Positions 1,857-32,000 of a stretch of DNA of 32,000 nucleotides are shown here, in pieces. The notes under the pieces are model-generated. The model ran no database searches and was not told where the DNA came from. It saw only the letters and a list, made by a program, of their open reading frames with translations. The position numbers and the translations under genes are program-made. Position 1 is the first letter of the stretch, and each line of letters begins with the position of its first letter. This stretch comes from Pseudothioglobus sp. nBUS_23 (lineage in GTDB: Bacteria > Pseudomonadota > Gammaproteobacteria > PS1 > Pseudothioglobaceae). The stretch spans positions 480,001-512,000 of the forward strand of contig NZ_CP179200.1 of assembly GCF_051201565.1 (NCBI RefSeq). Direction: 5' to 3'.

Positions 1857-4028
1857 ATGGCAGCAGTTAGGCCTCTACCTCAACAAAGCATTATTGAATG
1901 TATACCCCCTGCTTCTGAAATTGCAGATCTAAGGATACTCAATAAGGATCTGAATTTTATACAGGCGATGACCAAGAGGGCGGATGATCTCAATGCTCAA
2001 GCACAAGCTGCAACTGATTATTCTGAGTTAGTAAAGATATCGGATAGTTTTTCTAAGCTTGCTGAAAGGGCTGAAGTAAAAACAAAAACCTTAAAAGAGC
2101 TAACTAATGATTCAAACCCACTAACTGAAGTGAATAGCTCGGCAGAGCTTCTTGAAAAGGTTCAAGTCTTATCTCAAACGCTTGAGTCAAAAACACAAGA
2201 GCTTTCTGGTTTATATAACTCTAATGAAAGTTCATTGATTGATAGTTATGAAAGTTCCATTGCAGAATTAAATAATCAGGTTGATTTGACATCGTCCCCA
2301 GATGGAGTAGTTGCTCTATTTCCTCAAATAGAATCTCTGTTTCAAGAGATAGAAGAAAATACTCGATATGTAAGTAATAGTTCTGAAGCTTCTACTTTAA
2401 CTGAAAATGTTCAGAAACTTTCAAGTAATTATGCAGATAAGGCGGAGCAGTATAGCGACGCATTTATGAATGAAATGGGTTCTCAGATTGCTTTGCTTAA
2501 TGACGGCATCAATTCTTTGAGAGCAAATATTGACTATCTTAACTCAAACTCCTCAGTTCAGTCACACCTTGAGAGGCTCTCTGAGATTAGAGAGCAAGTG
2601 AATGCATCTGCCTCAATCTACAAGAATTATCCGGGTGCTCGTGATATGGTTTACAACCTTGATACTGTTAGTATCTCTACGCATGCAAGAGTTGAACAAA
2701 TGGCTAATAGTTACGAGATTGTCTCTGAAGAATTAATGCCTTTGGTTGATAACCCTGAGGCTCTCGTAAGAGCAGTCAAAGAAGCTGCGATAAGAACCGA
2801 TGTTTCAACCATTGAAAATGTTCTTATTCCTCTTACTAATAAAGCCAATGAGCTCAGTGCAAAAGTGATTGAACTTGCTGGACGCTATGATGCAGGAAAC
2901 TACGGAGATATTAAGGTCAGGGCCGTCTCAAATTTTGATAAAACAGTAGAGCGACTTGACAGACAATACATTGCAATAAGATCTACCGACCCTGAGGCTT
3001 TGGCAGCTAATATATCGGGCTTATCAAGCAATATTGAAAGTAATATGAGTGCAATCAGATCTGTTGATCCTTCCTCTCAAACTGAATATTTTGCATCATT
3101 AAATTCAAGAGTTGTTGACTCTGTAAATACCTCCGATTTCAGCATATTTGTGAATAACGTCATTTCCATACCAGGCGATGTGATGATGAGCTCCAGAAAC
3201 TGCGTTGATGCTGCGTTTAAAGACTTCACAAGAGAGTTTGGAAACAATATCGAGTCATTCTTTGACCCCCTCTTAACTTTTTTGATTGTCATTGAAAAGC
3301 TACTTCTGTCAACTCCTTGGCCTATCTTTTTGGCTGTGGCTGGCGCTCTTGCATGGCTAGGTTCCAGAAGCATTAAAGTCTCAATTGGTGTTATGGCAGC
3401 ATTCTTTGTGATTGGTTTCCTAGATATGTGGGAGCCAATGGTCTCTACCGTAACGATGATTTCAGCGGCAACATTGCTCTGCCTAGCGCTAGGTATACCG
3501 CTCGGAATTTGGATGTCTCGATCCGATCGAGCGCAATCCTGGATTACGCCTGTTTTAGACATTATGCAGACCATCCCATCTTTCGTATATTTGATTCCGG
3601 TAGTTATGATGCTTGGAATTGGAAAGGTTCCAGGGCTTATTGCAGTATGTATCTACGCAATGCCGCCAATTGTAAGGCTAACGAATTTAGGTATTCGTTT
3701 AGTTGATAAAGAGGCCATGGAGGCGGCTGATGCATTTGGAGCGACTTATAGGCAGAGACTATTTATGGTTCAAATGCCACTAGCACTTCCTAATATTTTT
3801 GCTGGTATCAACCAAACCATTATGATGGCCTTAGCCATGGTTGTAATTGCGTCAATGATTGGCGTGGCAGGCTTAGGTTTGCCGGTATTACAAGCTGTTC
3901 AAAACCAATTCCTATCAATGGGAATGCTTAATGGCTTAGCAATTGTTGCTCTTGCTGTCATTTTTGATAGAGTTTCACAGGCATTTGGTACCAGAATACA
4001 GAAACACCGTTCAGGAGACGTACTATGA
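1857..4028 (+). CDS. proW: ABC betaine/proline-type permease (ProW/OpuAB core, C-terminal ~285 aa) fused to a ~435-aa N-terminal extension of unknown function
   Basis: Uninterrupted 723-codon ORF with a strong RBS: AGGAG at 1846-1850, 6 nt before the ATG at 1857. The C-terminal part has the ProW core: IPGD...FFDPLL lead-in, about 7 hydrophobic segments, IMQTIPSFVYLIP, and the EAA-type coupling loop EAADAFGATYRQRLFMVQMPLALP. Residues 1-435 are S/N/E/L-rich, look helical and have no hydrophobic segment. Confidence 0.85.
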   Translation: MAAVRPLPQQSIIECIPPASEIADLRILNKDLNFIQAMTKRADDLNAQAQAATDYSELVKISDSFSKLAERAEVKTKTLKELTNDSNPLTEVNSSAELLEKVQVLSQTLESKTQELSGLYNSNESSLIDSYESSIAELNNQVDLTSSPDGVVALFPQIESLFQEIEENTRYVSNSSEASTLTENVQKLSSNYADKAEQYSDAFMNEMGSQIALLNDGINSLRANIDYLNSNSSVQSHLERLSEIREQVNASASIYKNYPGARDMVYNLDTVSISTHARVEQMANSYEIVSEELMPLVDNPEALVRAVKEAAIRTDVSTIENVLIPLTNKANELSAKVIELAGRYDAGNYGDIKVRAVSNFDKTVERLDRQYIAIRSTDPEALAANISGLSSNIESNMSAIRSVDPSSQTEYFASLNSRVVDSVNTSDFSIFVNNVISIPGDVMMSSRNCVDAAFKDFTREFGNNIESFFDPLLTFLIVIEKLLLSTPWPIFLAVAGALAWLGSRSIKVSIGVMAAFFVIGFLDMWEPMVSTVTMISAATLLCLALGIPLGIWMSRSDRAQSWITPVLDIMQTIPSFVYLIPVVMMLGIGKVPGLIAVCIYAMPPIVRLTNLGIRLVDKEAMEAADAFGATYRQRLFMVQMPLALPNIFAGINQTIMMALAMVVIASMIGVAGLGLPVLQAVQNQFLSMGMLNGLAIVALAVIFDRVSQAFGTRIQKHRSGDVL

Positions 4029-7239: not shown

Positions 7240-8325
7240 TTATCTAATCTTGATGCTTGCCAGGCTAATTAGAACAAGAATTAGCGTTACAATCCAAAAG
7301 CGCACAATAATCTTGGGCTCTTTGAGACCTTTTTTTTCAAAGTGGTGATGAATTGGTGCCATCTTAAAGAACCTCTTTTGCGTTCTCTTATAGTATGCTA
7401 TTTGAATGATCACTGACAAAGTTTCTGCTACAAATATTCCACCCATAAGGATTAATAAAATTTCTTGATGGACAATAATGGCAATGACAGCCAGTACTGC
7501 CCCCAGCGCTAAAGATCCAGTATCACCCATAAAAATTTCAGCTGGGTAGGTGTTAAACCATAAGAAACCAAAGCCTGCCCCTATAAGAGCCGCACATAAA
7601 ACAAATGCCTCTCCTGTTCCAGGCATGAATGGCATGTTGAGATAGCCAGAAAAATTATAGTTACCACCAATATAGGCAAAGACCCCAAGGGCGCCACTAA
7701 TAATAATAACGGGCATAATGGCCAAGCCATCTAAACCATCTGTCAAGTTAACAGAGTTTGAGCCACCAACAATTGCAAACCAGCCAATAATTAAAAAACC
7801 TATTGCATTAAGGGGAATGATTAGATCTTTAAAGAAAGGAATTAAGAGTTCAGCGCCAATGGTTTTTGAATTTAAACTGAGAAGCCAAAAACAGATCAAA
7901 AGGGTGCTAATTGTTTGTGCTGAGAGTTTTTGTCTTCGGCTTAGTCCATCAGAGTTCTGTTTTTTGATCTTTAAGTAGTCATCAATAAAGCCTATTGAAC
8001 TAAACAAAAGCGCAGTAACAATGACTATCCAAAGGAATGGGTTTTGCCAGTCACCCCAAATTAAAACACTAATAAAAAAAGCAAAGAAAATAAGGACGCC
8101 ACCCATCGTCGGAGTCCCTTTCTTTTCAAGATGCGTTTCAGGGCCATCATCACGAATGACCTGTCCAATTTGATACTCTTGAAGCTTACCAATAATCCAT
8201 TTACCTAAAAGCAAGGTAATCAGAAGAGCTGTCATCATCGCAAAGACCGCCCTAACAGTCAGATAACTTAGAACATTGAATCCAGTATCTAGTGAAGAGA
8301 GAAAGCTTAAAAGCTCAAGAAACAT
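7240..8325 (-). CDS. mraY: Phospho-N-acetylmuramoyl-pentapeptide transferase
   Basis: 361 aa, collinear with my recollection of E. coli MraY: [87 protein letters not shown]...LASIKIR. Confidence 0.93.
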
Positions 8326-8327
8326 GC

Positions 8328-9320
8328 CTAGTTATCCTCAGCAGAAATGAGTATTAAATCAAAGATTAAGAAGGCATCTTGAGGAATGTTTCCACTAGGA
8401 GCATTCCCAAAGACTGATTCATAAGTCGCAATTGCAGTTCGCTTCTCTCCAATCGTCATCTTTTGAACATTTGTCTCTATGATGCTGATAATCTCACCCG
8501 TTCCCAAAGGAAAAGGAATGGGGCTTCCTGGAGGGCGCATAATCTCACCAGTATTTGCACTAAGAGCAATATCCACTGTCACCACTTGACCAACACTTGC
8601 GAAATCCCCACTGCCCTCTGAAGTGATAGTTGTGAAGTAGCCTAAATCGTCTTTTACAGCATCTGGAAAATTCGAGGCTACATAGGATTCAAAATCTTTT
8701 TGGCGAAGATTCTGTTGAGCAATAATAGCTTCATTGGCTTTTTCAATTAAGGAATTAAAAGAATCTTCGTTAGCTACAAATTTATTTGCTTCTTCACCAA
8801 TGCGCTCAATTCTTACCGTTTCTAAAACGTCACCCTGTTCAATAGCATTAACAACATCCATGCCCTCAACTACGCTCCCAAATACGCTGTGCTTTCCATC
8901 AAGCCAGGGCGTAGGTACATGTGTAATGAAGAATTGTGAGCCGTTGGTATTAGGGCCAGAATTAGCCATCGATAGTACTCCAGGTCTGTCATGAATAAGA
9001 TCACTAAATTCATCTGCGAACATATATCCAGGTCCACCCGTCCCGTTACCCTTTGGGTCACCACCCTGAATCATAAACTCATCAATGACTCTATGAAAAG
9101 TTAGCCCGTCATAATAGGGAGTGCCAAGATCTTTTATACTCTGCTTTGTCCCCTCAGCAAGTGCAATAAAGTTTGTAACGGTAAGAGGTGCTTTTTTATA
9201 GGCAAGTTCAACTGTAATTTCTCCCTTGTTTGTTTGAAGATGAGCAAAGATGCCATCATCAAGACTTGCAAAAGAAAGAGTTGAAATGAGAATTGAAAAG
9301 ATAGCTAGAAGTTTACGCAT
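8328..9320 (-). CDS. Secreted dual-domain peptidyl-prolyl isomerase: cyclophilin domain plus C-terminal FKBP-like domain
   Basis: Cyclophilin motifs [44 protein letters not shown] and [10 protein letters not shown]. The C-terminal ~120 aa follow the FKBP pattern: [11 protein letters not shown]...[32 protein letters not shown]...[16 protein letters not shown] place the start at the ATG at 9320 ([18 protein letters not shown] signal peptide). The track's longer ORF begins at a TTG at 9365, and an ATG at 9362 is also possible. Confidence 0.8.
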
Positions 9321-9387
9321 AATAACCATAGAAATAAAATGATTAATGATACCCAAAATCATCAATATTTTAGAGCTGTTACGTTAA

Positions 9388-11025: not shown

Positions 11026-12456
11026 GTGTCAACAATTTCTCAGTTAAAAAAATCACTCCCAAAAAATATAGTCCTTATTGGTGAAGAAAATACTCGCCCT
11101 TTTGAGTGTGATGGGTTGAGTGTTTATAAACAAAAGCCAATGGCAGTCGTTTTGCCTAATGAGGTAGGTCAGGTCAAAAAGGTGTTGGAGATTTGTCGAA
11201 AAAATAAAACTCCTATCGTTACAAGAGGGGCTGGAACTGGCCTGTCAGGCGGCGCAATGCCAATCAAGGATAGTGTTGTTTTAGGGTTATCTAAGTTAAC
11301 CAAAGTGATATCTATTAACCCAGAAGAGTTGACAGCTGTTGTTGAGCCTGGTGTTAGAAATTTAGCTATCAGCGAAGCTGCTGAAGAGTACGACCTCTAT
11401 TATGCGCCAGATCCGTCATCCCAAATTGCTTGCACGATTGGCGGTAATGTTGCTGAAAATGCAGGAGGGGTTCATTGTCTTAAGTATGGGTTAACTATCC
11501 AAAACATTGAATCGATAAAAATATTGACCATAGATGGAGATGAGTTAGTTTTTTCGAGGGATGACGAGGGATTGGGTCTCTTAGCTTTGATGACTGGCTC
11601 AGAGGGTCTGCTTGGAATCATTACTGAAATAACGGTAAAGCTGACTAAAAAACCAGAGGTTGCTAAACTGATTATGGCTGGCTTTGACAGTGTAAGAGAT
11701 TGTGCAAATGGTGTAGCTGAAATTATTAAGAATGGCATTATTCCAGCGGGATTAGAAATGATGGATGAGTTCGCTATTCAGGCGTCAGAGGAGTTTGCAC
11801 AGCCAGGATATCCTTTAGGTTCAAAAGCTTTACTACTTTGTGAGTTAGATGGCTCTGAAGAGTCTGTGATTCCTGACGTTGATACTGTTGTCAGTCTGCT
11901 TTCAAAGGCAAGCTCATTAAGAGTCTCAGAGTCGGAAGATGAGAGGCTCCTGTTATGGAAGGGTAGAAAATCAGCTTTTCCTGCAGTTGGGAGAATATCA
12001 CCCGACTATTATTGTATGGATGGAACAATACCTAAAAGGTATCTAGCCGATGTGTTAGAAAAAATCAATGCCATGTCAAAGCGATTTAACCTCAGAGTAG
12101 CTAATGTCTTTCATGCAGGAGACGGTAACCTCCACCCGTTGATTCTATATGATGCAGGAGTTCCAGGAGAATTAGAAAAGGCTGAGGAGTTTGGAAATGA
12201 AATTCTTAAGCTCTGCATTGAAGTGGGAGGAAGCATCACTGGAGAGCATGGCGTTGGTGTTGAGAAATTAGATGCAATGTGTTTCCAGTATAGTGATGCA
12301 GAACTTGATGTTTTTCATCAAATAAAAGCTGCATTTGATCCGCAGACGCTTTTAAATCCAGGTAAGGCAGTGCCCTCGCTTCATCGGTGCGCTGAATTAG
12401 GAAATATGCATGTTCATCACGGAATTCTTCCACATCCAGAATTAGAGCGATTCTAA
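11026..12456 (+). CDS. glcD: Glycolate oxidase (dehydrogenase) subunit GlcD, FAD-linked
   Basis: 476 aa with a GTG start at 11026 and GAAGG upstream. PFECDGLSVYKQKPMAVVLP matches the E. coli GlcD N-terminal region. FAD-binding RGAGTGLSGGA is present, as is the C-terminal GSITGEHGVGVEK...KAAFDP..LLNPGK. Confidence 0.88.
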   Translation: MSTISQLKKSLPKNIVLIGEENTRPFECDGLSVYKQKPMAVVLPNEVGQVKKVLEICRKNKTPIVTRGAGTGLSGGAMPIKDSVVLGLSKLTKVISINPEELTAVVEPGVRNLAISEAAEEYDLYYAPDPSSQIACTIGGNVAENAGGVHCLKYGLTIQNIESIKILTIDGDELVFSRDDEGLGLLALMTGSEGLLGIITEITVKLTKKPEVAKLIMAGFDSVRDCANGVAEIIKNGIIPAGLEMMDEFAIQASEEFAQPGYPLGSKALLLCELDGSEESVIPDVDTVVSLLSKASSLRVSESEDERLLLWKGRKSAFPAVGRISPDYYCMDGTIPKRYLADVLEKINAMSKRFNLRVANVFHAGDGNLHPLILYDAGVPGELEKAEEFGNEILKLCIEVGGSITGEHGVGVEKLDAMCFQYSDAELDVFHQIKAAFDPQTLLNPGKAVPSLHRCAELGNMHVHHGILPHPELERF

Positions 12457-12458
12457 TT

Positions 12459-13022
12459 ATGAAGACTATCGGAGAACTTCAAAAAAAAGTTAGAAATGCA
12501 AGTCAGCTAAGAATATCAAACTCTATTGACGAGTCTAGCGATGAATTATTAAATATGAAATCATACTCTGGTGTTGTTGAGTACTTTCCAGAAGAATTAG
12601 TTATAACAGTTAAAGCAGGAACATTAATTAAAGACATAAGTCAGACTTTAAGAAAAAAAAATCAAGCGCTGCCTTTCTTTATAAAAGATGAGGAGAAAAC
12701 AATTGGATCTCTCTATGCTACTGCAGGCTCAGATTTGTCAGATAGCGTTTTGGGGGTTCAGATAATCAATGGAAAAGGAGATTTATTAAATTTTGGTGGC
12801 CAAGTTATGAAAAATGTTGCTGGTTATGATGTCTCGAGGCTTTTAGTGGGATCGATGGGTAAGCTTGCAGTTATAACACAAATCAGTTTTAAAGTTTTTC
12901 CTGAGAAATTGGCTCATGAAAGAAGAATTAATCAGCCAAAGAAAATTAATGACTCACCTCTTAGAGAAGAAATAGAACAGAGACTGAAAGATGTATTTGA
13001 CCCTTATGGAGTGTTTGTTTAA
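12459..13022 (+). CDS. glcE: Glycolate oxidase subunit GlcE-like, unusually short (187 aa)
   Basis: It sits between glcD and glcF, as glcE does. It has part of an FAD_binding_4-like core (VITVKAGTLIKDI...LPF, GGQVMKNVAGYDVSRLLVGSMGKLAVITQISFKVFP) and a conserved C-terminal LKDVFDPYGVF. My recollection is that E. coli GlcE is about 350 aa. Confidence 0.7.
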   Translation: MKTIGELQKKVRNASQLRISNSIDESSDELLNMKSYSGVVEYFPEELVITVKAGTLIKDISQTLRKKNQALPFFIKDEEKTIGSLYATAGSDLSDSVLGVQIINGKGDLLNFGGQVMKNVAGYDVSRLLVGSMGKLAVITQISFKVFPEKLAHERRINQPKKINDSPLREEIEQRLKDVFDPYGVFV

Positions 13023-14176
13023 TGTATGCAGATATTAAAAATATCAATATATCAGAGCAAACAAGAGACAAAGCGACTCAAATTATTGAGTCTTGTGTGC
13101 ATTGCGGTTTCTGCTTAGCAACCTGTCCAACCTATCAGCTATTGGGTGATGAGCTAGACTCTCCAAGAGGCAGGATTTATTTAATTAAGTCTGCTTTAGA
13201 GCAAAACCAATTCAGCCTGAAATCATTAAGTCATATGGATCGATGCTTGACGTGTCGTTCATGTGAAACGACTTGTCCGTCAGGTGTAGAGTATGGCCAG
13301 CTTCTTGAAATAGGTCGAGATCTTATGGAATCTAAGAGAGGAAAGTTTCAAGCGCTTTACCGATTTATAGTTAGAAAAACTCTTTTAACCCCGATAATTT
13401 TTAAACCATTGGGTTATTTTTACCGCCACTCAAAGATTACCTCTAAACTGTTAAAACCTAAAAAAATAAACTCTAAAGTTCTTTTAATTTCAGGTTGCGT
13501 TCAGCCTTCACTTGCTCCAAACATCAATCATAGCATCAAGAATATATTAGCTAAGCTGAATATCGAGGTACTAGAATCATCACAGGGGCAATGTTGCGGT
13601 GCACTTGACCAACACCTTGCAGCATCAAGTGATGCCATGAAAAAAGTAAAACAAAATATTGATCGATGGACACACCAACTTGAGTCAGGTGTGGATTCAA
13701 TCATTTCCAGCGCAAGTGGATGTGGTGTGATGATTAAAGATTACCCTAGGCTTTTTAAAAGTTCTGATCCATATTTTCAAAAGGCACTGTTTGTGTCCTC
13801 AAAAACTGAAGATATTGCAGAATTTCTTTCATCTAAAGATTTAAGTGGGCTTCATTTAACAGAATTAAACGTTACTTATCATGAGCCATGTACGATGCAA
13901 CATGGACAACAATTGGGCGGCTTAGTTGAGTCAATACTCTCCCAATTCGGATATACTAAAAAACCAGTCAAAGATTCACATATTTGTTGCGGCTCTGCAG
14001 GTACATACTCAATTTTTGAGACTAAAATATCAAACCAACTCAGAACCAACAAGATTAAACATTTAAATGCTTCAGAACCTAACATGATAGTTACCAGTAA
14101 TATTGGATGCTTGCTGCATCTTCAAAAAGGAAGCTCTATTCCAGTCAAGCATTGGGTGGAACTTTTAGATGTCTAG
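13022..14176 (+). CDS. glcF: Glycolate oxidase iron-sulfur subunit GlcF
   Basis: Its start overlaps the glcE stop (TAATG). Two ferredoxin-type motifs, CVHCGFCLATCP and CLTCRSCETTCP, are followed by two cysteine-rich CCG-type domains (GCVQP...QCCG; EPCT...HICCGSAG). Confidence 0.88.
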   Translation: MYADIKNINISEQTRDKATQIIESCVHCGFCLATCPTYQLLGDELDSPRGRIYLIKSALEQNQFSLKSLSHMDRCLTCRSCETTCPSGVEYGQLLEIGRDLMESKRGKFQALYRFIVRKTLLTPIIFKPLGYFYRHSKITSKLLKPKKINSKVLLISGCVQPSLAPNINHSIKNILAKLNIEVLESSQGQCCGALDQHLAASSDAMKKVKQNIDRWTHQLESGVDSIISSASGCGVMIKDYPRLFKSSDPYFQKALFVSSKTEDIAEFLSSKDLSGLHLTELNVTYHEPCTMQHGQQLGGLVESILSQFGYTKKPVKDSHICCGSAGTYSIFETKISNQLRTNKIKHLNASEPNMIVTSNIGCLLHLQKGSSIPVKHWVELLDV

Positions 14177-21650: not shown

Positions 21651-22604
21651 ATGAGTCATATTATCTATGAGCCAGTCAAACAGAGATTGCAGCGAAGTGA
21701 GTTAGCTGTTCCAGGATCAAATCCTAAAATGTTTGAAAAGGCTCTTAAAAGTTCTGCGGACTATGTTTTTTTAGATTTAGAGGATGCAGTCGCTCCAGAC
21801 GACAAAGTGCCTGCTCGTAAAAATATTATCGAGGCGATCAATGATCTAGACTGGAATGGCAACGGAAAGACTATATCGGTTCGAATTAATAGCATTGACA
21901 CACATTACATGTACCGGGACGTTGTTGAGGTTGTAGAGCACGCAGGAGATAAACTGGATACTATCCTTCTTCCAAAGGCTGGAACAGCATCAGATATTTA
22001 TATGTTGTCTGCAATGCTGAATCAAATAGAGACCTCTAAGGGTTTAAAAAATAGAATTGGAATCGAAGTATTAATTGAAACGACTCTAGGAATGGCTAAT
22101 GTGATGGATATTGCGCAAAAAGGTCGTGAGGAGAGGCTTGAAGCGATGCACTTCGGTGTGGCAGATTACGCGGCAAGTTGCAGGGCAAGAACAACAGTAA
22201 TTGGGGGTTTAAATCCGGATTATCCTGGTGATCAATGGCATGCCGGCCTCTCGCAAATGCTAGTCGCTTGCAGGGCCTATGGCATAAGAGCTATTGACGG
22301 ACCCTTTGGAGACTTTAATGATCCAGAATCTTATATTGACGCTGCAAAAAGAGGTGCAGCTCTTGGATTTGAAGGGAAATGGGCAATTCATCCTTCACAG
22401 ATTGATCTTGCGAATGAAGTCTATACCCCACCAGAGTCTGAAGTATCTCATGCAAAACAAATTCTTATAGCTCTTGATGAGGCAGCTAAAGAGGGCAGGG
22501 GCGCTGCACAGCTCAACGGAAGAATGATTGATGCTGCCTCAGCAAAGATGGCAGAGAATATTGTAAATACAGATAATGCAATTAATTCAAAACTAAAAGG
22601 TTAA
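21651..22604 (+). CDS. mcl: L-malyl-CoA/beta-methylmalyl-CoA lyase (HpcH/HpaI aldolase-citrate lyase beta family)
   Basis: 317 aa. RSELAVPGSNPKMFEKA, DYVFLDLEDAVAPDDK, ILLPKA, and FGVADYAAS...GKWAIHPSQI, as in CitE/Mcl-type lyases. mtkAB-like genes follow immediately, 1 nt away. Confidence 0.8.
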   Translation: MSHIIYEPVKQRLQRSELAVPGSNPKMFEKALKSSADYVFLDLEDAVAPDDKVPARKNIIEAINDLDWNGNGKTISVRINSIDTHYMYRDVVEVVEHAGDKLDTILLPKAGTASDIYMLSAMLNQIETSKGLKNRIGIEVLIETTLGMANVMDIAQKGREERLEAMHFGVADYAASCRARTTVIGGLNPDYPGDQWHAGLSQMLVACRAYGIRAIDGPFGDFNDPESYIDAAKRGAALGFEGKWAIHPSQIDLANEVYTPPESEVSHAKQILIALDEAAKEGRGAAQLNGRMIDAASAKMAENIVNTDNAINSKLKG

Positions 22605-22605
22605 T

Positions 22606-23781
22606 ATGAACATTCATGAATATCAAGCCAAAAAAATATTGGCACAATATGGGGTTCCCGTTCCACGAGGCGGTGTAGCGCACTCTGCAACTGGAGCAAT
22701 TTACCAAGCTAACGAATTAGGTGGAGACAAGTGGATTGTAAAGGCTCAGGTGCATTCTGGCGCTCGCGGAAAGGCAGGTGGAGTTAAATTATGTGAATCA
22801 CCTAAAGAAATTTCTCAGTTTTGTGACCAGTTTCTTGGTAATAACCTAGTCACAAATCAGACAGGCCCTGAAGGCAAAATGGTTTCAAGTATCTATGTTG
22901 AGGAGGCTACCGACATTATAAAAGAGCTCTACTTTAGCATCGTTTTGGATAGGGCAACTCAAAAAGTGACTTTGGTTGTTTCTACTGAAGGTGGAATGGA
23001 CATTGAGCAAGTTGCAGAGGAGATGCCAGAAAAAATTAACAAAATTAGGATTGATCCTTCAGTTGGAATGCAGCCATTCCAAGCGCGACAACTGGTTTTT
23101 ACTCTGGGATTACCTAATGAGGCAATCGGCTCTGCCAGTCGGGCAGTCATGAAGTGTTATCGCGCGTTTCGAGATACCGATGCCAACTTATTGGAAATTA
23201 ACCCTTTAGTGTTGACATCTGGAAATAAAGTTCTTGCTCTTGATGCGAAGATGTCATTTGATGCAAATGCACTCTATCGAAGACCAGAAATATTTGAATT
23301 TCACGATAAAACGCAGCAAGATATTCGAGAAATCAATGCCGCTGAGCATGACCTAAACTATATTGGATTGGAAGGCAATATTGGTTGTCTGATTAATGGC
23401 GCAGGTCTTGCGATGGCAACAATGGATATGATCCAACATGCTGGCGGGGAGCCAGCAAACTTTCTAGATATTGGTGGCGGTGCATCAGCCCAAAGGGTTG
23501 CTACATCTATAGAACTTGTTTTATCAGATGAGAATGTTGAGGCTATTTTAGTTAATATCTTTGCTGGTATTAATCGTTGTGATTGGGTTGCCCAGGGCAT
23601 TGTAGATCTATTAAACAAACGCGATATTGATATTCCTTTAGTAGTTCGTTTGTCAGGTACCAATGTTGAAAAAGGACAAAAAATACTAAGAGATAGTGGC
23701 AAAAAAGTTATTACTGCTGAAACATTGTCAGATGCAGCACACACGGTCGTAGCTGAATGGAAAAAATCAACTGGAAAATGA
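22606..23781 (+). CDS. mtkA: Malate-CoA ligase (malate thiokinase) beta subunit; SucC paralog
   Basis: ATP-grasp N-terminus MNIHEYQAKKILAQYGVPVP. QTGPEGK, AYRAFRD, LALDAKMSFDANALYRR and NIFAGINRCDWVAQG match my recollection of Methylobacterium MtkA better than SucC (which has IFGGIVRCD). It is linked to mcl rather than to sdh/sucAB. Confidence 0.75.
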   Translation: MNIHEYQAKKILAQYGVPVPRGGVAHSATGAIYQANELGGDKWIVKAQVHSGARGKAGGVKLCESPKEISQFCDQFLGNNLVTNQTGPEGKMVSSIYVEEATDIIKELYFSIVLDRATQKVTLVVSTEGGMDIEQVAEEMPEKINKIRIDPSVGMQPFQARQLVFTLGLPNEAIGSASRAVMKCYRAFRDTDANLLEINPLVLTSGNKVLALDAKMSFDANALYRRPEIFEFHDKTQQDIREINAAEHDLNYIGLEGNIGCLINGAGLAMATMDMIQHAGGEPANFLDIGGGASAQRVATSIELVLSDENVEAILVNIFAGINRCDWVAQGIVDLLNKRDIDIPLVVRLSGTNVEKGQKILRDSGKKVITAETLSDAAHTVVAEWKKSTGK

Positions 23782-23790
23782 GGGCTTATT

Positions 23791-24678
23791 ATGAGTATAT
23801 TTATTAATAAAAAGACCCCAGTTTTAGTTCAAGGTCTAACGGGGCGCATGGGTTCATTTCATGCTCAAGAGATGATTGATTATGGTACTAATGTCGTTGC
23901 TGGAGTTACTCCTGGTAAGGGAGGTACAACCCATCTAGGAAGGCCAGTGTTCAACACGGTTAAAGATGCTGTTGAAGCTACAGGCGCTGAAGCCAGCATT
24001 ATCTTTGTGCCTCCTGCATATGCGGCTGACGGAATTATGGAAGCTGCTGAAGGCGGCATTAAATATTGTGTCAGCATTACTGATGGAATACCAACACATG
24101 ACATGATTCGGGTAAAGAGATATCTTTTTGCACGTGCTAAACCAGAGGATCGCATGATTTTGACTGGTCCCAATTGTGCTGGAACCATTAGTCCAGGTAA
24201 AGCTATGTTAGGTATTATGCCAGGTCATATTTATAAGCAAGGCAACGTTGGACTCATTGGACGCTCAGGCACTTTAGGTTATGAAGCCGCTTCCCAAATG
24301 AAGGAGCTGGGTATTGGAATTAGTACTGGTGTAGGTATTGGTGGTGACCCAATAAACGGTAGTTCGTTTGTTGAAATTTTAAAGCATTTTGAACAGGATG
24401 ATGAAACTGAAGCGGTACTGATTATTGGTGAGATTGGAGGTCCACAAGAAGCTGAAGCTGCAGAATACTTTCAAAAACATATGACCAAACCAATGGCAGC
24501 TTATATCGCTGGTTTGACTGCTCCACCAGGAAGACTTATGGGTCATGCTGGAGCAATTGTTAGCTCTAGTGGTGAGAGTGCGGCTGAAAAGGTTGAAATG
24601 TTAGAAGATGCTGGTGTGATGGTCTCACCAACCCCTTCAGACATGGGTTCAACAATGGCAAAACTTCTTAAGGTGTAA
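23791..24678 (+). CDS. mtkB: Malate-CoA ligase (malate thiokinase) alpha subunit; SucD paralog
   Basis: CoA-binding GLTGRMGSFHA, GVTPGKGG, RVKRYL, PNCAGTISPGKAMLGIMPGHIY, and the phosphohistidine loop GHAGAIV. By-eye match to MtkB. Confidence 0.75.
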   Translation: MSIFINKKTPVLVQGLTGRMGSFHAQEMIDYGTNVVAGVTPGKGGTTHLGRPVFNTVKDAVEATGAEASIIFVPPAYAADGIMEAAEGGIKYCVSITDGIPTHDMIRVKRYLFARAKPEDRMILTGPNCAGTISPGKAMLGIMPGHIYKQGNVGLIGRSGTLGYEAASQMKELGIGISTGVGIGGDPINGSSFVEILKHFEQDDETEAVLIIGEIGGPQEAEAAEYFQKHMTKPMAAYIAGLTAPPGRLMGHAGAIVSSSGESAAEKVEMLEDAGVMVSPTPSDMGSTMAKLLKV

Positions 24679-26679: not shown

Positions 26680-27840
26680 TTATACACCATCAGGGCTAAA
26701 TCTCGGCATAACACGCTCAGAAAACAAAGTCATACTTTTGAGAATATTTTGATAGTCAAATCCAGGGAACTGTTGAAGCAGCATGATATGCTTAAGACCA
26801 ATCGACTCATTATATTTTTGAATTTTCTCTGCAACATAGTCAGCATCACCTACCCAGATGAGTTCATACTTCATTAGAAAATCAAACCACTCACCATTAA
26901 GGTCATCATCAGTCGGATTTGCATCATCATCAAGGTAAGCTTTGCGGGTCCAGCTCCCTTCTGGTCTCGAGCCACTCAGATACTCATAGTAACCATTGAT
27001 TGAATGTCTAACATCTTTATCAGCTTGCTCCATGGTTTCAGCTACATAGATTACTGTGCATACTCCCACACCGTCCCCTCTTTGATGGATAGTTCCATCA
27101 TGTGACTCTGCATCTGCATATGCATCCCAGCAGCTAACGAGTTTTCCCGGAGGGCTTGACATGCCTATCACCTTAAAACCTCTCTCAGATGCCAATTTAT
27201 AAGTATGTGGCGAGTTTGACATCAGCCATACTGGAGGATGAGGATTTTGATAAGGTCTTGGATGTATGTACATCCCTTTATATTCACCATCTTCAGAGTG
27301 GTACTCTTTTTCTAGAGGCATCAAAAAACGATTTGTTTCTTTCCAGCCTGGAACTGGGAATTCATAAAATTCTCCTTTATGAGTAAAAGGATCCTCAGTC
27401 CATGCCTTTAAAATAACTTCAAGCGACTCCATAAAAAGTCTATAACTTTTTTCATTATCACGGCGATCCGCCTCTTTATTGAATTGGAGTGTAACTCTCT
27501 CATTAATACCTTTAGCTACTCCAAAATCAACTCTACCTTCTGTCATATTGTCTAAAAGCGCGATATCCTCAGCAACTCTAAGAGGGTGCCAATCTGGCAA
27601 AACAATAGGAGCCTGACCAACACGAATTTTTTTTGAATGAGATGCCAAATCAAGAGACATCATTATGGGGTTGGGGGGAGCATTCAGATATCCATTATGA
27701 GCAAAGTGATGTTCTGTAAGCCAAACAGTTGTAAAGTCACCTTGTTCTGCAATTTGAGTTTGCTCACGCATCATTTTAACCACTCGTTCCCATGGGATAT
27801 TTTCACCGGGGTTGAAGAAGGGTACAAAATCAAATCTCAT
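26680..27840 (-). CDS. Luciferase-like (LLM class) flavin-dependent monooxygenase
   Basis: 386 aa. FTTVWLTEHHF...NP, GQAPIVLPDWHPLRVAEDIALLDNMTEGRVDFGVAKG parallels the LuxA/LimB-type LLM N-terminal half. No flavin reductase gene is adjacent. Confidence 0.85.
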   Translation of the reverse strand: MRFDFVPFFNPGENIPWERVVKMMREQTQIAEQGDFTTVWLTEHHFAHNGYLNAPPNPIMMSLDLASHSKKIRVGQAPIVLPDWHPLRVAEDIALLDNMTEGRVDFGVAKGINERVTLQFNKEADRRDNEKSYRLFMESLEVILKAWTEDPFTHKGEFYEFPVPGWKETNRFLMPLEKEYHSEDGEYKGMYIHPRPYQNPHPPVWLMSNSPHTYKLASERGFKVIGMSSPPGKLVSCWDAYADAESHDGTIHQRGDGVGVCTVIYVAETMEQADKDVRHSINGYYEYLSGSRPEGSWTRKAYLDDDANPTDDDLNGEWFDFLMKYELIWVGDADYVAEKIQKYNESIGLKHIMLLQQFPGFDYQNILKSMTLFSERVMPRFSPDGV

Positions 27841-27908
27841 ATGTTTTTTAAAAGTTAAAAGATAAAAATTTTAAATTATAAAATATTTAAATTTTTTTGA
27901 TCTATTAA

Positions 27909-29723
27909 TTAGTAATCACTAAGTCCATCAATAAGTGGTTTTAGGTAAGCCTCATATTTCTTCCATGCCTCAGAGCTCCCTTTATAAATTTTCTTTCTAA
28001 CTTGTGAATGACTTGCAGTTTTTACTGCACGAGTATTCTTGTGAAATTCTAGGCAATTATCATCCCATTTTAAATCACAAAAATTCAATAGATCTTTAGT
28101 TTCACTTTTTTGTTCATTAATGAGTTTTTCATAGTTAATTTCATAAATTTTATTTGGAAAAAGTTCATTCCAAGTATCCATTGTTTTGACATATAAGCTG
28201 TAAAAATTAACCAAATCATTCATGTCATAACCCCAGCTATTTCCTGTAACGCTGAAGTAATGCTTATATATTGACCAACAAATAGCTCTAGCATCTCTCG
28301 TAACATGGATTATTTTTGCCTCAGGAAAAGCCTTTAAAATTAGGCCAATGTATTCAAAATTTAATGGCATTTTGTCTGTAAAAAATTTTTCCGAAATACT
28401 GTATTTATCAAGCGAGTTCAAATACTCTGTTCCGATGGAAAGAATATTTTTATCAGTAAGATTCTCTGAACTACTTTGTAGAATTTTTTCTATAAAAGGG
28501 TTTGAAGCATTTTTAAAATTATTCATCTCACCAGCTCCAAAGACCTCTGAGTGACTTGATAAGATTTGCTCAACTAGCGAAGATCCTGATCTTGGCATTC
28601 CAACAATAAAAAGAGGTTTTTTGATTGAGTTTTTTTTGTCCAAAATATTTTTTGCAATAGATGGTGAGGCTTTTGCAATATCAATAATATTAGATTGTAT
28701 TTTTTTATAAGACTCAAAAGAGAAACCCAGCTCTTTTTTTTGGAGGTTGTTTCCTTCATTTAAATATTTAAAAAAATCTTTTTCTTTATTTAAATCTTGA
28801 TTGACTTTTGCAAGTGCGAAGCATAATTGGATTTTGTCTGAATTATTTGTTGAGTCAATCGAATACAGTTTTTCCATGATTTTAACTTGTGAGTCTCTTT
28901 CATCATATTTTTTTATTGAACTAATGTTTTTATGCGCTTCAGCATAATTAGAATTGATTTCAATAGCCTTAGAATAGCTTTCTAATGCGTTCTCTTGAAA
29001 GCCTAACATTTGAAACAAAATACCTAAGTTGTTATGAGCAAGTGCATATTTTGGATCAATAACTGTCGCTTTCTTAAATTGCTTCAATGCATCATCATAA
29101 TTCATTATTTCCTGATACGTAGCTCCAAGATTATTGAATGCTTCAGCATAATTTGGATTGTAGGCAACAGCCCATTCAAGACTTTTTATAGCGGACTCAT
29201 AGTCTCCATTATTCATTTCAATTAATCCAGCATTATTATGTGCCTGAGGATATGCATGTTTAATTGAAGTTGCTTTTTGATAGTTTTTTAAAGCTTTATC
29301 AGTTTGCTTAACCTTTTGGAGTGCAACGCCTAAATTATAATAAGCCTCAGCATAATCAGATTTCAACGTGATAGCTTTTTCAAAACAACTAATTGCATTA
29401 TCAACTGGACCAATTTGACTGTAACAAGCGCCAGCAAAATTAAATAATAGTGGCTGATGAGGATGTAATTCAATGAGAAGATTTATTGAATCTAAAGATT
29501 CCTTTACTAGGCCTGAAGAGTAGAGACGCATTGCATTGTCTAACTCTTTCTTTGAGGGACTCTTGCTCTTACTTTCTTCAAGTAAAAGTAGCCCTTTTTT
29601 TGCTTCTTGATTATCAGGAATAATAGATAAAACTGATCTATATAAGTCTCCAGCTTTCTTTAAATCACCCTTTTTAGTATTTTTTTTTGCACTAGATAAA
29701 ATTCTTTGTATTTTCAGGGACAT
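27909..29723 (-). CDS. TPR-repeat / sulfotransferase fusion protein (paralog 1)
   Basis: 604 aa. The N-terminal ~300 aa are tandem TPRs with recurring AEAxxNLG-type motifs (AEAYYNLG, PQAHNNAG, AEAFNNLG, ALAHNNLG, AEAHKNIS). The C-terminal ~230 aa carry the PAPS 5'-phosphosulfate loop FIVGMPRSGSSL and a 3'-phosphate-type motif, IIHVTRDARAICWS. Confidence 0.85.
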   Translation of the reverse strand: MSLKIQRILSSAKKNTKKGDLKKAGDLYRSVLSIIPDNQEAKKGLLLLEESKSKSPSKKELDNAMRLYSSGLVKESLDSINLLIELHPHQPLLFNFAGACYSQIGPVDNAISCFEKAITLKSDYAEAYYNLGVALQKVKQTDKALKNYQKATSIKHAYPQAHNNAGLIEMNNGDYESAIKSLEWAVAYNPNYAEAFNNLGATYQEIMNYDDALKQFKKATVIDPKYALAHNNLGILFQMLGFQENALESYSKAIEINSNYAEAHKNISSIKKYDERDSQVKIMEKLYSIDSTNNSDKIQLCFALAKVNQDLNKEKDFFKYLNEGNNLQKKELGFSFESYKKIQSNIIDIAKASPSIAKNILDKKNSIKKPLFIVGMPRSGSSLVEQILSSHSEVFGAGEMNNFKNASNPFIEKILQSSSENLTDKNILSIGTEYLNSLDKYSISEKFFTDKMPLNFEYIGLILKAFPEAKIIHVTRDARAICWSIYKHYFSVTGNSWGYDMNDLVNFYSLYVKTMDTWNELFPNKIYEINYEKLINEQKSETKDLLNFCDLKWDDNCLEFHKNTRAVKTASHSQVRKKIYKGSSEAWKKYEAYLKPLIDGLSDY

Positions 29724-29991
29724 TTGATATTATTTCTAGGTTAATGATAAGTAAAAGTTTTTTAAAAACTTGTTTATCTCATTATATTCAACTTTTTTTC
29801 AGTCTTAACAATTTATCTAATTTTATGATCATACTCACTTTAATTTATAAAAAGAGAGGCTTACAAAAAAAACCTAGTTTAAAATTAAAAATTTAGTGAT
29901 TATTAAAATTCATTTGTTTTGTTTAAACAATTTTTGTTCAATTTATTCATCCAAATTTTCAGAATGAATCATAAAAAAATCTATCTTGCTT
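29724..29991. promoter_or_regulatory. Extremely AT-rich divergent control region between TPR-sulfotransferase paralogs 1 and 2
   Basis: About 268 bp between divergent starts. It contains a 12-bp perfect palindrome, TTGTTTAAACAA (29919-29930). No clear consensus promoter could be assigned. Confidence 0.35.
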
Positions 29992-31653
29992 ATGAATAAT
30001 CTACAACCAAAAATCTCAAAAAGTGAAATTAATTTGGTTATGGATTTATATTCAACTGGCCAATTTAAGGAGGCAGTTGAAAAAATTAAAGAATTAAATA
30101 ACAAATTTCCAAATGTACCTATATTATTTAATTTAATTGGGGCATGTTACAAAGAATTAGGACACCTTGAGGGTTCAGCAAAGATGTTTGAAAATGCAAT
30201 AAACATTAAGCCACATTATGCTGAAGCACACTTCAATCTTGGAGCAGTACTAAAGATATTAAACAAAGATAATGAGTCAATTCAATCTTATAGGAATGCA
30301 ATAGCAATTAATCATAAATATCCCGATGCACTTAATAATCTTGGAAGAGCTTTACACGAACTTGGGGAGTATGATGAAGCAATTGATTTATTAGAGTGGG
30401 CTATCGCCTACAAACACGATTTTTCAGAAGCTCACAATAATCTTGGAAATGTCCTTAATGACATTGGAAAAGTAAGTGAAGCAATAGAAAGCTTTAAAAA
30501 AGCTATCACGCATAATCCAAATTATTCATCAGCATACTATAATCTTGCATCTGCTCATAAAGATATAGGCAATAAAAATGCCTACCTAAAATATATTGAA
30601 AAATCAGTTCAATTAAGGCCAAATTGGGGAGAGGCAAATTTCAATTTAAGTCAGGTTAAAGACTATTCCAATGGGGATCCTCACATCAAGAAAATGGAGT
30701 CATTGCTGAAAATAAATAACTTAGAATTAACGGATCAAATAGGTTTAAATTTTGCTCTAGCTCACGCCTATGATAAGCTTGGAAATCATGAAAAACAATT
30801 CAAATTCTTAAACGAAGCAAACAAACTGAGAAAACAAGAGGCAAATTATTCTTTTTCAATAGATAAAAATAGGTTTGCATTAGTTAAAGCTTTGTTTAAT
30901 TCAAGTCCAGTTAGCCTTGAAAAGTTAAAAACTAAATCAAAAGATAAGAGACCCATTTTCATTGTTGGCATGCCTCGATCTGGAACGTCTCTAGTTCATC
31001 AAATTATCGATAGTCATCAAAAAGTAAGTGGTTTAGGAGAGTTAACTATTTTGTCAAAAATAATTAACCAGTTTTTTAGACAACATGATTCTGATGATGT
31101 TATTTCTAATGAGGAGTTGCTTTTGATAAGAAACAACTATTTACAGTATATTTCTTCATTAAAGATAAATAATAATATTTTTATTGACAAAATGCCTTTA
31201 AATTTTCGGCATATTGGGTTTATTCTTGCAGCTTTTCCAGAAGCAAAGATTATTCACATGAAAAGAGATAGTATGGCTACTTGTTGGTCAATTTATAAGT
31301 ATTACTTTAATGGCAACCTATACTCTTATAATCAAAAAGATTTAGGGAAGTACTATAAATTATATGAGGACCTTATGAGGTATTGGGACAAAAAATTTCC
31401 AACAAAAATTTATAATATTTCATATGAAGATCTTACTCTCAATCAAGAGCAAGAAACTCGGAAGCTTATTGATTACTGTGGGCTAGATTGGGATGAAAAT
31501 TGTTTGAACTTTTATAAAAACAAAGGGGCTGTTAAAACAACTAGTGCTCTTCAAGTAAGACAGAAAATGTATCAGGGTAGTTCAGAAGTTTGGAAAAAAT
31601 ATGAAAACCACCTAGAGGATCTGATTACTGTATTAGATTATTACAAAAAATAA
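29992..31653 (+). CDS. TPR-repeat / sulfotransferase fusion protein (paralog 2)
   Basis: The track ORF begins at a TTG at 29986, but I prefer the ATG at 29992 (MNNLQPK...). TPR motifs AEAHFNLG, PDALNNLG, SEAHNNLG, SSAYYNLA and GEANFNLS. Sulfotransferase motifs FIVGMPRSGTSL and IIHMKRDSMATCWS. The C-terminal half is clearly alignable with paralog 1. Confidence 0.85.
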   Translation: MNNLQPKISKSEINLVMDLYSTGQFKEAVEKIKELNNKFPNVPILFNLIGACYKELGHLEGSAKMFENAINIKPHYAEAHFNLGAVLKILNKDNESIQSYRNAIAINHKYPDALNNLGRALHELGEYDEAIDLLEWAIAYKHDFSEAHNNLGNVLNDIGKVSEAIESFKKAITHNPNYSSAYYNLASAHKDIGNKNAYLKYIEKSVQLRPNWGEANFNLSQVKDYSNGDPHIKKMESLLKINNLELTDQIGLNFALAHAYDKLGNHEKQFKFLNEANKLRKQEANYSFSIDKNRFALVKALFNSSPVSLEKLKTKSKDKRPIFIVGMPRSGTSLVHQIIDSHQKVSGLGELTILSKIINQFFRQHDSDDVISNEELLLIRNNYLQYISSLKINNNIFIDKMPLNFRHIGFILAAFPEAKIIHMKRDSMATCWSIYKYYFNGNLYSYNQKDLGKYYKLYEDLMRYWDKKFPTKIYNISYEDLTLNQEQETRKLIDYCGLDWDENCLNFYKNKGAVKTTSALQVRQKMYQGSSEVWKKYENHLEDLITVLDYYKK

Positions 31654-31654
31654 T

Positions 31655-32000
31655 ATGAATAAGATAAAACCATCCAAAATTGAAATTGACTCTATCATTA
31701 ATCTTTTTTCTAATGGGGATTTAGAAAAATGTCTAGAGACTATTGCAATTTTAATCAAAGACTATCCCGAAGAGTCTTTGTTATTTAATATTCAGGGTGC
31801 CTGTTATGCTGCTTTAGGGCAGTCTGATAATTCAGTGAAATCGTATAAAACTGCAATCACTTTAAAGCCAGATTATGCTAAAGCCCATTATAATTTGGGC
31901 GGCATTTTGCATGAAATTGGAAATTTAGATAAATCAGTTCATTCATACGAAAGCGCTCTCAGTATTGAGCCAGACTATGCAGAAGCCCACAACAATCTTG
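31655..32000 (+). CDS. TPR-repeat protein, 5' fragment (likely a third TPR-sulfotransferase paralog; 3' end outside window)
   Basis: Absent from the ORF track because it has no stop in the window. The ATG at 31655 is 1 nt after the paralog-2 stop. My hand translation is open to the window end: MNKIKPSKIEIDSIINLFSNGDLEKCLE...LLFNIQGACYAALGQ...DYAKAHYNLGGIL...PDYAEAHNNL. It has the same N-terminal layout as paralogs 1 and 2. Confidence 0.8.
   Translation, partial: MNKIKPSKIEIDSIINLFSNGDLEKCLETIAILIKDYPEESLLFNIQGACYAALGQSDNSVKSYKTAITLKPDYAKAHYNLGGILHEIGNLDKSVHSYESALSIEPDYAEAHNNL

Follow-up and report, generated by a model that had tools for sequence, protein, structure and literature searches.

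To our knowledge, protein sulfation in bacteria is known experimentally from essentially one system, that of the sulfotransferase RaxST, an enzyme that lacks a tetratricopeptide repeat (TPR) domain. The heptosyltransferases Aah and TibC, and the GT41 glycosyltransferase HMW1C, are cytoplasmic modifiers encoded beside their own autotransporter or two-partner-secretion adhesin; systems of this type glycosylate, and we know of none that sulfates. Another GT41 enzyme, the cyanobacterial Ogt, is a TPR-GT41 protein without a secretion signal that is required for cytoplasmic glycosylation of the pilin PilA (PMC9306852), and GT41 enzymes of the SPINDLY type occur with rml genes in enterobacterial flagellin glycosylation islands (PMC4875605), so that GT41 is a protein-glycosylating family in bacteria too. 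An architecture that joins TPRs to a sulfotransferase was listed as early as 2005 (PMC554113). Here we analyse a pair of such genes at the end of a stretch of 32,000 nucleotides from Pseudothioglobus sp. nBUS_23 (NZ_CP179200.1, positions 480,001 to 512,000; hereafter the window, to which coordinates refer unless another contig is named). Taking into consideration their sequences, structural models and likeness to known enzymes, we give about even chances to the reading that both TPR-sulfotransferases (TPR-STs) are cytoplasmic, TPR-guided enzymes that sulfate exported or surface polypeptides, either at a side chain or at a sugar that a GT41 enzyme has attached, and that they act together with protein glycosylation.

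The first gene (27909..29723, minus strand) encodes a protein of 604 amino acids (aa; WP_435189759.1), annotated by NCBI as 'sulfotransferase' of Pseudothioglobus sp. nBUS_23. The second (29992..31653, plus strand, with an alternative TTG start at 29986, two codons upstream) encodes a protein of 553 aa (WP_435189761.1), annotated as 'tetratricopeptide repeat-containing sulfotransferase family protein'. A third open reading frame (ORF) follows, separated by 1 nt from the stop of the second and cut off by the end of the window; this layout is the one given in a preliminary description of the window, made from the sequence alone. Both complete proteins are built in the same way: TPRs arrayed at the N-terminus lead through a conserved linker of helices to a Sulfotransfer_3 domain (PF13469) at the C-terminus. 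In a Pfam search this domain was matched at E 7e-43 in the 604-aa protein and 9e-44 in the 553-aa protein. The scores, 147.8 and 150.7 bits where the cutoff is 27, come from matches over model positions 1-216 of 216 and are much higher than chance would give; many Pfam TPR families matched both proteins strongly, and Glyco_transf_41 matched neither. NCBIfam holds no specific model for these proteins, all of its TPR-protein matches being below threshold, and its match to NoeE, the Nod-factor fucose sulfotransferase, was very weak (E 4.5e-4; 19 bits, with the cutoff at 500).

In the 604-aa protein, the TPR array covers about residues 56-290 (28854..29558, minus strand), as delimited by a 34-residue periodicity and by Pfam TPR_1/TPR_11 stretches, and the sulfotransferase domain covers residues 370-604 (27912..28616, minus strand; Pfam stretch 370-555 plus motifs). 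In the 553-aa protein, where an AlphaFold2 (AF2) model was available, its helices and the invariant alignment columns place an N-terminal cap with 6-7 TPR hairpins at residues 10-240 (30019..30711, plus strand) and a three-helix linker (FALA...F.FLNEAN.LRK.E) at residues 246-301 (30727..30894, plus strand; helices 246-262, 266-284 and 288-301). These are followed by a TPST-like sulfotransferase domain at residues 320-553 (30949..31650, plus strand), recognised from a PDB profile search, Foldseek and its catalytic residues. The N-termini of the proteins are hydrophilic TPR caps without a hydrophobic segment, and no signal or transmembrane segment is visible, which suggests that both are soluble and cytoplasmic. 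Identity between the two proteins is 42%, whereas between each of them and the orthologue that occupies its position in the related islands described below it is 53-66%; the duplication is thus older than the split of these lineages, as expected for the old paralogue family that had been proposed. Between the two genes lies a divergent intergenic region (29724..29991) with a guanine-plus-cytosine (GC) content of 19%. It holds only low-complexity ORFs of 23-53 aa, with no credible small ORF among them, and presumably both promoters; a promoter and terminator scan of the AT-rich island gave matches no better than those in shuffled sequence.

All statements on invariance in the sulfotransferases derive from an alignment of 37 homologues with 42-71% identity (alignment A1). 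The columns equivalent to the motifs FIVGMPRSGSSL, GAGE, DKMP, RDARAICWS and KTASHSQV of the 604-aa protein are invariant, and in the 553-aa protein P328, R329, S330, G331, R425, D426 and S433 vary little or not at all. The 5'-phosphosulfate-binding loop PRSG[ST] and the 3'-phosphate motif RD....S, which serve to bind 3'-phosphoadenosine 5'-phosphosulfate (PAPS), align with the motifs of the tyrosylprotein sulfotransferase TPST1. A profile alignment pairs R329, E350, K400, R425 and S433 of the 553-aa protein with R78, E99, K158, R183 and S191 of TPST2, of which R78, E99 and K158 are active-site residues whose alanine mutants lose most activity (PMC10951654). The PRSGT loop, the catalytic-type Glu, the counterparts of K158, R183 and S191 and a TxSxxQV motif are all invariant. 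For Ser285 of TPST2, a counterpart at T516 or S518 of this last motif (T516, S518, Q521, V522) is plausible by eye; the region was left unaligned by HMMER, and a PDB search with the C-terminal 67 aa, which include the motif, gave no sulfotransferase match. The linker residues F254, L256, F270, L273, N277 and L279 are invariant as well. The motifs quoted in the preliminary description (FIVGMPRSG[ST]SL, IIH..RD....CWS, KT[AT]S..QVR.K.Y.GS..WKKYE and, in the linker, FALA...F..LNE.N.L.K.E) are all present, with most of their residues invariant, and the PAPS-binding residues, whose possible loss it had raised, are kept on careful alignment.

The same conservation bears on whether the genes could be decaying or non-catalytic paralogues, that is, TPR adaptors with a dead sulfotransferase domain, or an assembly artefact of repetitive TPR DNA. 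The public short-read assembly, apparently of the same strain, does break at the start of the third gene, and several related long-read contigs contain frameshifted genes. However, both sulfotransferase ORFs are intact, identical proteins occur in the complete genome at NCBI and in a second, independent assembly, the PAPS-binding and catalytic residues have stayed invariant at the divergence just given, and orthologous pairs are conserved in every island. We regard decay or artefact as very improbable, effectively refuted by conservation and independent assemblies.

Comparison with solved structures points to one group of enzymes. A single-sequence PDB search put TPST1 and TPST2 first (E about 4e-9), and a profile of 12 sulfotransferase sequences, run against all PDB sequences, retrieved human TPST1, human TPST2 and a tick TPST at E 3e-15 to 1e-13, followed by the CurM sulfotransferase (2e-6) and a mycobacterial sulfotransferase (PDB 2z6v, 1e-5). 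With the AF2 model of the domain (predicted local distance difference test, pLDDT, 78), the 13 best Foldseek matches were all TPSTs, at template modelling (TM) scores of 0.62-0.71, and behind them came CurM/OLS, Stf, cytosolic SULTs and heparan-sulfate 3-OSTs. The best 50 of the 106 PDB matches at E<=0.001 were all sulfotransferases, which assigns the model to the sulfotransferase alpha/beta fold. Judged by sequence and model together, the domain is predicted to be a PAPS-dependent sulfotransferase of the TPST type. Since the proteins have no membrane anchor, they are TPST-like in the catalytic domain and not TPST orthologues.

The full-length AF2 model of the 553-aa protein (pLDDT 88.5, predicted TM score 0.82) comprises the cap, 6-7 TPR hairpins, the three-helix linker and the sulfotransferase domain, and its confidence would imply a fixed arrangement of TPRs and catalytic domain; the 7-9 repeats first counted were a slight overcount. 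In both proteins an Asn recurs exactly every 34 residues (pattern xxxxxN[LAI][GAS]), at TPR position 6 and often also at position 5, in 5-6 consecutive repeats. In the 604-aa protein these residues are at 95, 130, 164, 198, 232 and 266; in the 553-aa protein Asn47, Asn82, Asn116 and Asn150 do not vary, and conservation of Asn184 is 90% or more. The lowest per-position entropy was found at TPR positions 3, 5, 6, 7 and 8. By both sequence and structure, the TPR region was matched best by designed consensus-TPR proteins and only then by SPINDLY and O-GlcNAc transferase (OGT), so the Asn pattern is not specific to OGT. The 'AEAxxNLG' pattern is the general TPR consensus, which fits binding of an extended polypeptide and is not diagnostic of an OGT-like function. 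The regularly spaced Asn of the preliminary description is present in both proteins; the argument that it is specific to OGT is weak.

The visible part of the third gene (31655..32000, plus strand, running off the window) encodes 115 aa of N-terminal cap and TPRs, matched in Pfam by TPR families only. This fragment is 59-61% identical to the N-termini of TPR-GT41 proteins of 931-935 aa from the closest syntenic locus, against 36-46% to TPR-STs, and two TPR-STs of 689 aa reach 58%. Among the proteins fetched, the best full-length match was a 936-aa TPR-GT41 (P0462, 67%), itself the third gene after a 604-aa sulfotransferase on the minus strand and a 551-aa sulfotransferase on the plus strand, the same layout as in the window. 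Of the seven syntenic island versions, six have a TPR-GT41 as third gene and one has a TPR-ST of 690 aa in that place. On these likenesses, the third gene probably encodes an OGT-like TPR-GT41 glycosyltransferase rather than a third sulfotransferase. Of the three or more TPR-ST genes originally claimed, two are real, and the third, which shows 115 aa of TPR only, is more like TPR-GT41s (59-67%) than TPR-STs (36-58%).

A homology search with the 115-aa fragment returned short fragments only, which did not reveal the catalytic domain, and a chimeric query made of these 115 aa and the rest of GT935 from contig L005 did not retrieve the protein of nBUS_23 itself. The final 41 bases of the window had no exact match in a scan of genome contigs, and a search of genome contigs for related loci with the 805-aa TPR-GT41 of L005 gave only two unrelated TPR loci. 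A short-read Logan contig of 7.5 kb, apparently from the same strain (SRR31779810_117), stops some 40 bp inside the third gene. Assemblies are probably broken by the repeats in TPR-coding DNA, and TPR arrays are likely to be under-represented or fragmented in metagenomes.

The sulfotransferase genes form the left edge of a low-GC cassette. Upstream lie 28 kb of housekeeping genes with a GC fraction of 0.39-0.41; from position 27909 on, the fraction is 0.30-0.34 in the genes, and it is 0.19 in the intergenic region described above. The cassette is inserted between a luciferase-like monooxygenase and rluD/yfiH (27840-27909 in the window; contigs L005, L011, L013 and L025 of relatives), and the upstream genes mtkAB, a BD-FAE hydrolase, SnoaL, a glutathione S-transferase (GST) and the luciferase-like monooxygenase are common to the window and to the contigs of relatives. 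There the order is a sulfotransferase on the minus strand, one on the plus strand, one to three TPR-GT41s or a third sulfotransferase, a DegT-family aminotransferase, rmlB, rmlA, rmlC, rmlD and the core genes rluD/yfiH, a set that includes genes for dTDP-rhamnose and for a dTDP-amino-deoxyhexose. The content differs among closely related populations, with one to three GT41s, two or three sulfotransferases and DegT present or absent. The divergent pair is kept in every syntenic island, and orthologues of the 604-aa protein, 602-604 aa long, hold the same position in all of them. An APS (adenosine 5'-phosphosulfate) kinase of the cysC type adjoins the minus-strand TPR-ST in one island version (L013, 2395-2994; also L014); no APS kinase or other PAPS gene was found in the window, as the preliminary description had stated. 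Its remark that glycan genes are absent holds within the window, beyond which the islands of relatives continue with GT41s, DegT and rmlBACD.

The sulfotransferases and GT41s of the islands share an N-terminal helix and first TPR (…S+EQID.V..LYS.G…P..PLLFN..GACY…), which makes them paralogues on one scaffold with the catalytic domain exchanged; the proposed replacement of a GT41 domain by a sulfotransferase is thereby borne out by adjacent genes. Two further origins were considered for the locus and dropped: a defence system, for which PADLOC gave generic TPR matches only, and a phage, for which a phage collection gave one weak match. That sole phage match to the sulfotransferase domain lies in an unannotated 1.5-kb fragment of Cyanobacteria phage AS-1 (DQ115829.1, 945-1535; 23% identity, E 4e-20). 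In the JGI contigs L003 and L010, mtkA, the GST, TPR genes, an NTP-transferase and DegT are split into fragments, which looks like long-read frameshift errors and not like true pseudogenes.

The wider family is very large. A search with just the sulfotransferase domain gave 27,052 clusters (50% identity), of which 9,310 had E<=1e-30, and no characterised member was found in the searchable literature. Nearly all of the best 150 listed members are 480-2,800 aa long with the sulfotransferase at the end of a long N-terminal region. Many family proteins carry 2-7 sulfotransferase stretches, and the examples checked are (TPR-ST)n polyproteins. The very large P0241 (2,492 aa), P0252 (2,819 aa), P0250 and P0242 have 2-7 Sulfotransfer_3 matches, in most of them interleaved with TPRs (P0252 had no TPR match at the threshold used); such polyproteins are the fused equivalent of tandem gene arrays.

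Distant homologues, with 33-38% identity in the sulfotransferase domain, were taken from annotated plasmid and megaplasmid records. In Enterobacter sp. 638 (pENTE01, L017) a TPR-ST, a GT8 and an autotransporter stand in a row; the passenger of this autotransporter is a Ser/Thr/Gly/Asn-rich repeat of the beta-helix type. An autotransporter, a TPR-ST, a GT9-like protein and a hydrolase are found together on the Ralstonia solanacearum PSI07 megaplasmid (L016), an autotransporter precedes a TPR-ST in Thalassospira (L018), and in Pacificitalea (L021) the two genes are divergent. Kluyvera and Lelliottia plasmids carry a TPR-ST with an adjoining GT8, and a porin lies upstream of the Cereibacter homologue. 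On a Comamonas endophytica plasmid (NZ_CP106882.1, L023, 508460-523176) an apparent operon encodes a cadherin-domain protein of >4,000 aa, an 878-aa TPR-ST, TolC, an ABC ATPase, HlyD and cysC. By analogy, this giant adhesin looks like a candidate sulfation substrate in an arrangement of the RaxST/RaxABC type. In total, a large secreted adhesin-type protein adjoins the TPR-ST in five of 12 lineages, an autotransporter in four of these, which is the pattern known for cytoplasmic adhesin-modifying glycosyltransferases; other contexts point elsewhere, three homologues had nothing suggestive around them, and we found no paper on autotransporter sulfation.

A protein target is best supported by three lines: the TPST-nearest sulfotransferase domain, the GT41 partners, and the operons of distant homologues with an autotransporter or a type I-secreted adhesin and cysC. 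The protein or peptide sulfation put forward in the preliminary description is on these grounds the reading that we favour. We infer that the TPRs bind the acceptor and that the acceptor is a protein, and the same applies to its identity, the sulfated atom and the sugar donors. In such a process, the TPR domains would bind their substrates, one polypeptide or a few, while these are in the cytoplasm; most probably they are proteins destined for the surface, such as a pilin, an adhesin or an outer-membrane protein; flagellin would be one candidate among several, no flagellar genes flanking the islands. The GT41 enzymes would add dTDP-derived sugars to the substrate, and both sulfotransferases would move sulfate from PAPS to a hydroxyl of the same substrate, either a Tyr, Ser or Thr side chain or the newly attached sugar. 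Strain differences in island content would then vary the decoration of the cell surface.

Several observations weigh against this reading. TPSTs are the sole solved members of Sulfotransfer_3, so the closeness to TPST may reflect sparse sampling of the PDB and not the type of acceptor. The position of TPST2 Arg101, a residue that we take to contact acidic residues of the substrate, lies two residues past the catalytic Glu and is non-basic and unconserved in the TPR-STs (GAGEL), so that substrate recognition need not match that of TPSTs. In the TPRs, the concave-face positions 9, 12 and 13 are variable, unlike the Asn at 5/6. Neither a gene for a substrate or substrate peptide nor type I secretion genes were found in the window or in the seven syntenic island versions.

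Other such points come from the island itself and would suit sulfation of an envelope glycan. Here the island would specify an O-antigen, capsule or S-layer glycan, with rml and DegT making the sugars, the GT41-like enzymes building the glycan, the sulfotransferases sulfating it and the TPRs serving only as scaffolds. The island behaves like a 'replacement flexible genomic island', its low GC, fixed site between core genes and variable content being typical of the O-chain islands for which the concept is cited (PMC12421898) and which usually encode envelope glycans. The rmlBACD and DegT genes downstream in relatives are equally typical of O-antigen loci. One island version (L013), whose left flank is unlike that of the window, is flanked by the APS kinase and by a gene for a 429-aa Wzz-like membrane protein (266-1555), and a TPR-containing capsule polymerase (8qoy), in which the TPRs are oligomerisation scaffolds, is among the fold matches of the TPR region; the weak NoeE match could be read in the same sense. 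However, the Pfam match to Wzz is only faint, and none of the seven island versions has an initiating phosphoglycosyl transferase, a flippase, a polymerase, an ABC exporter or a GT2/GT4 gene for polysaccharide synthesis and export. The only MraY/WecA-family (Glycos_transf_4) gene of the window lies 20 kb away and is presumably MraY, given its size and N-terminal sequence. The sulfotransferase domain is nine orders of magnitude closer to TPSTs than to other solved sulfotransferases, those acting on heparan sulfate and the mycobacterial carbohydrate enzymes included, and proteins are the only acceptors known for GT41 enzymes (PMC4875605, PMC9306852). An envelope glycan as the acceptor is, in our opinion, unlikely, though it is the main rival to protein sulfation.

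The contexts of three distant homologues also weigh against protein sulfation and suggest that peptide or oligosaccharide metabolites could be acceptors. Homologues in Asticcacaulis (L028), Pseudoalteromonas (L029) and Komagataeibacter (L027) lie near TonB-dependent receptors; the Asticcacaulis context also has an Asp/Asn beta-hydroxylase and a second sulfotransferase, of the Sulfotransfer_2 family, and that of Komagataeibacter a glycosyltransferase, a NodS-like methyltransferase and a PIG-L deacetylase. Comparable neighbourhoods of sulfotransferases, hydroxylases and TonB receptors have been proposed to make modified peptides (Iyer et al. 2010, PMC2938197), and RaxST, the one characterised bacterial protein sulfotransferase, acts on a small secreted peptide. 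The acceptor could then be a peptide resembling ribosomally synthesised and post-translationally modified peptides, a siderophore-like compound, a Nod-factor-like oligosaccharide or a lipid, with the TPRs binding a leader peptide or a partner enzyme. For the Pseudothioglobus genes this is quite improbable: no precursor-peptide ORF, nonribosomal peptide synthetase or polyketide synthase gene, protease or exporter was found in the window or the syntenic islands, the island partners are GT41 enzymes and nucleotide-sugar genes, and sulfotransferases of the CurM/OLS and Stf types are much more distant. These contexts suggest that the TPR-ST family is functionally heterogeneous, and the TonB-receptor-linked members hint at targets other than the proteins first proposed.

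Returning to protein sulfation, a wider version is that the whole TPR-ST family, at least 27,000 clusters at 50% identity, is a bacterial counterpart of TPST that sulfates adhesins, pilins and outer-membrane proteins before export, and that in Pseudothioglobus it works with dTDP-sugar GT41s to give a strain-variable sulfated glycoprotein surface; we advance this tentatively and with considerable doubt. If true, protein sulfation in bacteria would be widespread and not a Xanthomonas curiosity, and a function would be assigned to a very large enzyme family that is widely annotated. Surface diversity among strains of some of the most abundant marine bacteria would come from sulfated surface proteins as well as from glycans, which could bear on recognition by phages and grazers, and the pairing of sulfotransferases with GT41 and dTDP-sugar genes would point to rhamnose-type protein glycosylation by OGT relatives. 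Protein engineering would also gain a set of soluble sulfotransferases targeted by their TPRs. In Enterobacter sp. 638 and Ralstonia solanacearum, both tractable hosts, the homologues next to autotransporters bring the question within reach of experiment.

Elsewhere in the window, PrfC and MtkA are encoded, as well as a 723-aa protein (1857-4028, plus strand) whose last ~180 residues match the ABC permease BPD_transp_1 and which belongs to a glycine-betaine transporter operon; its first ~450 residues are Ser/Asn/Glu-rich and apparently helical, with no Pfam match. The MraY-like gene (Glycos_transf_4, 361 aa) lies between dcd and a secreted cyclophilin-FKBP fusion isomerase (7240-8325 and 8328-9365, both minus strand), outside any cell-division (dcw) cluster. 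Glycolate oxidase genes like glcDEF, a malyl-CoA lyase and the malate-CoA ligase mtkAB (11026-14176 and 21651-24678) suggest glycolate/glyoxylate assimilation in this heterotrophic SUP05 relative.

Set against the known systems, the TPR-STs have their best profile and fold matches in TPST1 and TPST2, with which they have in common the 5'-phosphosulfate-binding loop (G.PRSGT.L), the catalytic Glu, the Lys of (N/D)K.P and the 3'-phosphate-binding RD....S. TPSTs, however, are Golgi-lumenal type II membrane proteins without TPRs, whereas the TPR-STs are predicted to be soluble and cytoplasmic and have a TPR array of 300 aa. NodH, NoeE, Stf0/Stf1 and the CurM-type sulfotransferase have the same PAPS-dependent P-loop fold with much weaker similarity. 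The RaxST/RaxX-RaxABC system of Xanthomonas oryzae is alike in that a bacterial PAPS-dependent sulfotransferase acts on a secreted polypeptide; its logic of sulfotransferase, type I secretion and APS kinase recurs only in the operon of the distant Comamonas homologue, and, unlike that system, the window has no adjacent substrate gene, type I secretion system or PAPS gene. The distant TPR-STs hold the same genomic position as Aah, TibC and HMW1C, often with a GT8 or GT9-like gene, whereas the Pseudothioglobus island has no adjacent adhesin gene. Like flagellin glycosylation islands and the replacement flexible islands of aquatic bacteria, it is a cassette of low GC whose content varies while its site stays fixed, and it includes rml genes and transferases of the GT41 type; it differs from the flagellin islands in having no flanking flagellin or flagellar genes, and the word 'sulfotransferase' has 0 occurrences in the paper on the enterobacterial ones (PMC4875605). 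With OGT, SPINDLY and bacterial Ogt, the TPR-STs share a near-consensus TPR superhelix, the Asn at position 6 of successive repeats and a C-terminal transferase, which is here a P-loop sulfotransferase instead of a GT-B GT41, and true TPR-GT41 paralogues with the same N-terminal cap stand beside them in the island of relatives. The genes were already annotated in generic terms, and we describe their products as sulfotransferases of the TPST/RaxST type that carry a TPR array and are encoded in a cluster with OGT-like enzymes.

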